Made by a program: the position numbers and the translations under genes. This document shows, one piece after another, positions 61,008 through 61,054 of a stretch of 64,000 nucleotides of DNA. Each line of letters opens with the position of its first letter. The stretch's first letter is position 1. The DNA is from Bryobacterales bacterium. GTDB lineage: Bacteria; Acidobacteriota; Terriglobia; Bryobacterales; Bryobacteraceae. The stretch is taken from assembly GCA_016721425.1 (NCBI GenBank), contig JADKID010000020.1:20549-84548 (forward strand), given 5' to 3'. The notes under the pieces were generated by a model. It was not told the origin of the DNA. It saw nothing but the letters and a program-made list of their open reading frames with translations, and ran no database searches.

Positions 61008-61054
61008 GGGGGGGGGGGGGGGGGGGGGGGGGGGGGGGGGGGGGGGGGGGGGGG
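61008..61054 (+). repeat. Uninterrupted 47-nt poly(G) (poly(C) on the minus strand) homopolymer
   Basis: Counted directly from the sequence: the G run begins at 61008 (after ...aacccac) and ends at 61054 (before cgcccgagg). It lies in a 443-bp non-coding gap between the Arc-like gene and the HerA-like ATPase gene. Confidence 0.95.

Follow-up and report, generated by a model that had tools for sequence, protein, structure and literature searches.

Phase-variable homopolymeric tracts (contingency loci) are usually under ~20 nt in length, far below the 47 consecutive G residues (G47) of the run analyzed here. A published example concerns tracts of seven or more nucleotides (PMC4965091), compared to 47 nt in the present case. 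The G47 run resembles such tracts in being a G run located upstream of a gene, but differs from them in that six same-species contigs and the relatives were all found to have no tract, however short, at the orthologous site. Whereas a contingency locus has a tract that varies in length between conspecific strains, a complex sequence of 71 nt was found at the site in all six conspecific contigs. The length is also outside the range found in natural sequence around it, as internal G or C runs did not exceed 9 nt in the related loci (1.37 Mb scanned), and the longest run elsewhere in the window, i.e., the whole 64-kb stretch of DNA that was analyzed, was 8 nt.

Poly-G may also have a technical origin. 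Sequencing by synthesis does not drop bases. In the two-colour Illumina chemistry (NextSeq, NovaSeq) the absence of signal is called as G, and poly-G tails are common (PMC6129281). The G47 run is similar to these tails with respect to the miscalled base, and G/C junk was found at the ends of two contigs from relatives (L047 and L074). The tails are, however, found at read and contig ends, whereas the G47 run lies inside a contig, between two correct flanks, and the chemistry keeps the register without deletions, whereas the sequence surrounding the run has 27. A further source of error is the consensus of metagenome-assembled genomes (MAGs) built from long reads or from long and short reads in combination. 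Homopolymer indels, including single-base homopolymer deletions, are the classic residual error of Nanopore sequencing (PMC9262707).

The run consists of exactly 47 uninterrupted G residues, as had been claimed from the sequence alone. It starts 75 nt past the stop codon (60930..60932) of an RHH/Arc-like gene, with 321 nt between its end and the ATG of a HerA-like gene, and the gap between the two genes is 443 nt (60933..61375). These spacings, and the presence of a C8 run in the same gap, agree with the sequence-only reading. The description of the gap as non-coding does not, since a wrecked hicB-family open reading frame (ORF) lies within it, which in same-species contigs is uninterrupted over 120 codons. 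The features of the region are listed in Table 1.

Table 1. Position of the features discussed, in window coordinates.
Feature	Position	Strand	Remarks
Tannase/feruloyl-esterase gene, split	49213..50618	-	1-nt homopolymer deletion at ~49542
SPFH/Band 7 gene	59844..60731	+	Pfam Band_7/SPFH; upstream member of the gene trio
RHH/Arc-like gene, 63 aa	60741..60932	+	Weak RHH_5/Arc matches, both below Pfam cut-offs
Low-quality consensus patch (putative)	60970..61275 (~305 nt)	.	Alignment to same-species contig L082
G47 homopolymer	61008..61054	+	In place of the complex 71-nt sequence of six same-species contigs
hicB-family antitoxin remnant, wrecked	61055..61344	+	TAA stop at 61342..61344
C8 run	61326..61333	+	Exact end of the HicB homology
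HerA-like (DUF87) P-loop ATPase gene, 781 aa	61376..63721	+	Pfam DUF87/HerA

Elsewhere in the window the longest runs were C8 overall and G7 among G runs. The number of G47 runs expected from base composition is ~7e-22, which rules out a chance origin. G or C runs of 12 to 14 nt were found in the related loci (1.37 Mb), but these were confined to positions no more than 71 nt from contig ends. They belong to low-complexity G/C junk that opens two public MAG contigs of relatives (L074 1..71 and L047 1..12, with runs of G13, C14, and C12), and that looks like typical read-tail artefacts at contig ends. A scan of the G fraction across the whole window revealed no second G-overcalled patch. The only comparable segment (37426..37600) was normal glycine-rich coding sequence; it is located within the ORF 37342..38130, encodes a Gly/Arg-rich stretch (37460..37600) with GGGRGG repeats, carries imperfect 12- and 21-nt tandem repeats and looks natural.

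A look-up for exact matches to the 63-aa RHH protein identified six contigs from separate samples in three repositories (JGI 3300012533, Logan SRR17348321, and ENA ERZ27275293, ERZ27275391, ERZ937816, and ERZ965206; collectively L081 to L086). All are short-read metagenome contigs from wastewater or activated-sludge samples (ERZ937816 is activated sludge and ERZ965206 wastewater). The RHH protein was identical between the window and the six contigs. The flanks of the tract were found to be >99% identical, and the differences were substitutions only (0.2 to 0.9%), except for a C7 instead of a C8 run in L081. At the tract site the six contigs agreed with each other within a few SNPs, and a homopolymer was found in none of them. 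Where the window reads CCCAC followed by G47, they carry the 71-nt sequence ATTACCGCGACCGTGAGAAGCACGTTACTGAGCCGCGACCGTCAGGGAGCGGTAATCCAAGATGGGCGTGG, which contains the ATG of the hicB-family ORF, and in L082 and L085 the ORF that follows is complete (120 codons). The G47 run thereby covers the spacer and the ATG of this ORF. Unbroken sequence extended from the RHH gene across the tract site in six out of six contigs, three of which (L081, L082, and L085) reach the HerA-like gene.

Four synonymous SNPs in the RHH gene, common to the six contigs, separate the window from them. The window is thus from a slightly different strain, which leaves formal room for a strain-specific state that would count against an artefact. 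A metagenome scan with a 30-mer common to the window and the six contigs gave only the known JGI contig. Exact look-ups gave no match for the HerA-like protein, for GltX, for the product of a 127-aa ORF (42662..43045) or for those of two ORFs reading through the tract. The spacer upstream of hicB in L082 did not fold better than shuffled controls (z = -0.24), so that nothing obvious marks the 71-nt sequence that is replaced in the window as a structured element. Cases of this kind can be decided without access to reads, by looking for identical copies of a small neighbouring protein in other assemblies and comparing the DNA.

The segment 60940..61330 of the window (391 nt) was aligned to its counterpart in L082 (485 nt), which was used as reference. 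The window was found to be 94 nt shorter, with 27 deletions of 1 to 12 nt and no insertions. All 26 substitutions were to G; 24 of these were located under the tract and two outside of it. T was the base most often deleted (30 of 75) and G the least (15 of 138). The blocks between the deletions, such as 61096..61194, were identical to L082. The damage extends ~40 nt to the left of the tract (to 60970) and ~220 nt to the right (to 61275). Outside of the tract the patch had two substitutions in ~414 nt of reference (0.5%), which is similar to the flanks (0.2 to 0.9%). A natural pseudogene gains substitutions alongside indels, and insertions alongside deletions. Since the substitution divergence of the patch was no higher than that of its flanks, there has been no extra evolutionary time to account for the 27 indels, and natural decay fits these data poorly. 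The one-sided spectrum, confined to 300 nt, indicates a failure of base-calling or consensus.

It is very probable that the G47 run is a technical artefact, and that it forms the core of an uncorrected patch of ~305 nt that was built from poor or conflicting reads. That the run might be an artefact had already been put forward from the sequence alone, and in this general form the proposal is borne out by the differences between the patch and the other assemblies, all of which are deletions or changes to G. The most likely route would be a long-read or hybrid metagenome assembly. In the patch, long reads would be scarce or of low quality, or strain haplotypes would be mixed, and polishing with short reads would fail because these would be unable to align across a junk homopolymer. 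The true order of the site would be a 143-nt spacer after the RHH gene, followed by a 3'-truncated hicB remnant without partner and then by the HerA-like gene.

The locus resembles the consensus errors of long-read or hybrid MAGs in several respects. The short patch is dominated by deletions (27 deletions and no insertions) in otherwise clean sequence, compared to a single indel in the ~9.7 kb outside of the patch that could be compared to 11 same-species contigs. There is also a separate homopolymer frameshift in the tannase gene, and the location is strain-variable. On the other hand, a pure 47-nt homopolymer and substitutions exclusively to G are not the usual signature of such errors, and the lack of insertions and the deletions of up to 12 nt are unlike the textbook profile of raw Nanopore reads. 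No documented process is known to us by which a polished consensus would come to contain exactly G47.

The indel outside of the patch was found by a look-up of a 171-aa protein (52141..52656), which gave five further same-species contigs covering 47819..55280. These were 99.6 to 99.8% identical to the window and differed by one indel, at ~49542, where the window has T5 and three of the contigs have T6 (gene strand). The tannase gene was found intact (500 aa) in L093 and L094, while two ORFs in the window match the Pfam Tannase profile at positions 1-275 and 373-489. A real frameshift is possible, but this is probably another consensus error of the same assembly. Together with the known error profile of Nanopore sequencing (PMC9262707), the change from T6 to T5 hints at a long-read or hybrid origin of the window without proving it.

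The order of the SPFH, RHH, and HerA-like genes was found to be kept in four related genomes (L001, L004, L089, and L090). The RHH and HerA-like genes are ~40 nt apart in L001, while a minus-strand ORF is located between them in L004. In L090, a contig of 765 kb, only 5 nt separate the RHH stop from the HerA-like start, and in L089 the order is kept with a disrupted RHH reading frame. L089 and L090 are closer relatives that were obtained by protein search, and their HerA-like proteins are 89 to 91% identical to that of the window. The start of the HerA-like gene and the motif CTAGAATAAGGCCC just upstream of it are conserved in relatives. CTAGAATA(A/G)GGCCC is found just before the ATG in both L089 and L090, whereas L001 keeps only the CTAGAATA core. 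A genome scan (554 confirmed loci) placed relatives of the HerA-like ATPase at 55 to 70% identity in Acidobacteriota, Nitrospirota, Chloroflexota, and other phyla. What the trio does is not evident from its family matches.

The flanks of the tract are genuine neighbours in the genome. It had been suggested that the regions to the left and right of the tract might not be contiguous; however, the six contigs span the site, and the gene order is conserved in the four related genomes, so that the concern about a false join is not borne out. A poly-G run inside a contig is not necessarily the sign of a chimeric join, and here the flanks are right and the local consensus alone would be wrong.

We considered other explanations of the tract. 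It is very unlikely that tract and deletions are both real and represent an expanded G tract in a decayed hicB remnant, acting as a hypermutable, G-quadruplex-forming barrier or switch in front of the HerA-like gene. Such a tract is present in the sequence as given, but a G run was found at the site in none of the six same-species contigs and in none of the relatives, where internal G or C runs stop at 9 nt. The SNPs shared by the contigs do make the window a distinct strain, structural changes between strains are frequent at this site, and selection would not oppose the decay of a remnant that is probably non-functional; decay by 27 deletions and no insertions, with no excess of substitutions at ~0.5% divergence, is nevertheless not a known natural mutation spectrum, and the substitutions are all to G. 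A real G-quadruplex or hypermutable element, as proposed in the sequence-only reading, finds no support in the six same-species assemblies, which have ordinary complex sequence without a homopolymer at the site. Neither these (L081 to L086) nor L001, L004, L089, and L090 have a G-rich element between the RHH and HerA-like genes, as a conserved G-quadruplex would require.

G-quadruplex-induced deletions in helicase-deficient eukaryotes are single and start at the tract. This mechanism was rejected for the present locus, where 27 small deletions are scattered.

A mixed case, in which the small deletions are real and reflect strain-specific decay of hicB while G47 alone is technical, likewise has a very small probability. 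Tract and deletions need no common cause, and the remnant is probably non-functional. The absence of a substitution excess among what are deletions only counts against this case just as it does when everything is taken as real, and the deletions flank the tract and stop within ~40 nt to the left and 220 nt to the right, which fits a single local failure.

That the G47 run is itself genuine in this one strain, by runaway expansion of a homopolymer in a dead hicB remnant that immediately precedes the widely conserved HerA-like gene, is extremely unlikely. If true, it would be a natural G-quadruplex or replication barrier and, to our knowledge, by far the longest homopolymer in a bacterial chromosome.

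Finally, it is scarcely credible that poly-G tails of two-colour Illumina reads falsely bridged two contig ends from DNA that is not contiguous: although no signal is read as G in this chemistry, the 26 substitutions relative to L082 are all to G and poly-G/C junk is present at the ends of public contigs of relatives, the flanks adjoin without a break at the tract position in six same-species contigs, the order of the SPFH, RHH, and HerA-like genes holds in four genomes, reads with dark cycles keep register and cannot produce the 27 deletions found to the left and right of the tract, and reads that run from sequence into G would be expected to give dead ends in a de Bruijn graph and not bridges. 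As the cause of the miscalled base, without the bridge, the two-colour chemistry had also been suggested. It can explain the changes to G (26 of 26) but not the 27 deletions and is insufficient alone; a consensus or long-read step would be needed in addition.

With the G47 run taken as a probable consensus artefact, the finding has little biological importance in itself. The record would have ~300 nt of corrupted sequence, in which the hicB remnant is hidden and spurious poly-Gly and poly-Pro ORFs are created, and the region would therefore need re-polishing or masking.

The ORF beneath the damage is related to HicB of the type II toxin-antitoxin system HicAB, with ~80% identity over the first 101 residues homologous to HicB. 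It differs from HicB in that the C-terminal part is absent, that no hicA was detected and that the canonical start codon is changed to ATC. In L082 it occupies 479..841 (120 codons), and its first 101 HicB-homologous residues match HicB proteins of 144 aa. A phmmer search with the 120-aa ORF gave many 144-aa proteins, ~80% identical and with E-values no higher than 1e-45, which are named HicB at source and carry PF15970. In an hmmscan of the same ORF against Pfam and NCBIfam no match was found, so that PF15970 was not reproduced, and the assignment to HicB is based on the names of homologues, precomputed Pfam matches, and pairwise similarity. By tblastn the HicB of L091 (1501..1935) was 82% identical over residues 1-101, with the homology ending at the C8 run. 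This full-length hicB has a 58-aa HicA-like ORF directly upstream. No match to hicA was found in L081 to L086 or near the tract in the window, and no hicA remnant upstream of hicB.

Homology to HicB thus stops at residue 101 of 144, and there is no adjacent hicA. In this species ATC replaces the canonical ATG of hicB, and the ORF is lengthened by an ATG further upstream. The remnant is probably non-functional even where the ORF is open, being 3'-truncated, without hicA and with ATG changed to ATC. The copy in the window is split over two frames, with GSDGRVMVEFIDLARIATDGADNREAMEEAI in one and MREQPVDNSELGRNRRGPPRHW followed by a stop in the other. From these comparisons the species carries a truncated hicB remnant without partner, inserted between the RHH and HerA-like genes, of which the window shows a corrupted copy.

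The C run at the end of the HicB homology was C8 in L082 and L085. In L081 it was C7, and the hicB remnant is thereby fused in frame to the HerA-like ORF (one partial product of 544 aa). The run may truly vary in length, or L081 may contain a sequencing error. The other three contigs, L083, L084, and L086, all end inside the hicB remnant within ~20 nt of each other. The end of L083 (1259..1277) is Nextera transposase adapter (CTGTCTCTTATACACATCT), i.e., adapter contamination.

In sister species, which are without the hicB insert, the RHH and HerA-like genes are separated by only 5 to 40 nt. A further contig, L088, has a HerA-like gene that is 96% identical at the DNA level to that of the window, but unrelated sequence upstream of the position corresponding to 61321. 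This foreign sequence (L088 1..163) is hairpin-rich and located directly upstream of the C run. No other copy of it was found by BLAST against the window and all loci, and it may represent the end of a mobile element. L088 marks the site as an insertion hot spot. Judged from these contigs the site is strain-variable and one at which short-read assemblers break, an indirect hint that coverage may have been low or haplotypes mixed at the patch.

The nearest species-representative genomes to the window are Acidobacteriota (MAGs of Solibacteraceae and Bryobacteraceae), with no more than 71% protein identity. Neither tRNA genes nor Rfam families were found anywhere in the window. According to a crude gene map based on codon bias, 1.2 kb (35854..37075) is without a confidently scoring gene, and the statement that the 443-nt gap is the longest in the window was therefore not confirmed. 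It holds weak minus-strand ORFs at 35816..36214 and, Cys-rich, at 36300..36740, with no Pfam, tRNA or Rfam match. What appeared to be a second gap (12916..13608) was discarded, as it belongs to a long ORF. The window has 63.8% G+C, with 22718 C compared to 18084 G on the plus strand (GC skew about -0.11). The skew persists over the minus-strand gene at 58734..59744, so that a coding-strand effect alone does not explain it. The G47 run opposes the GC skew of the window.
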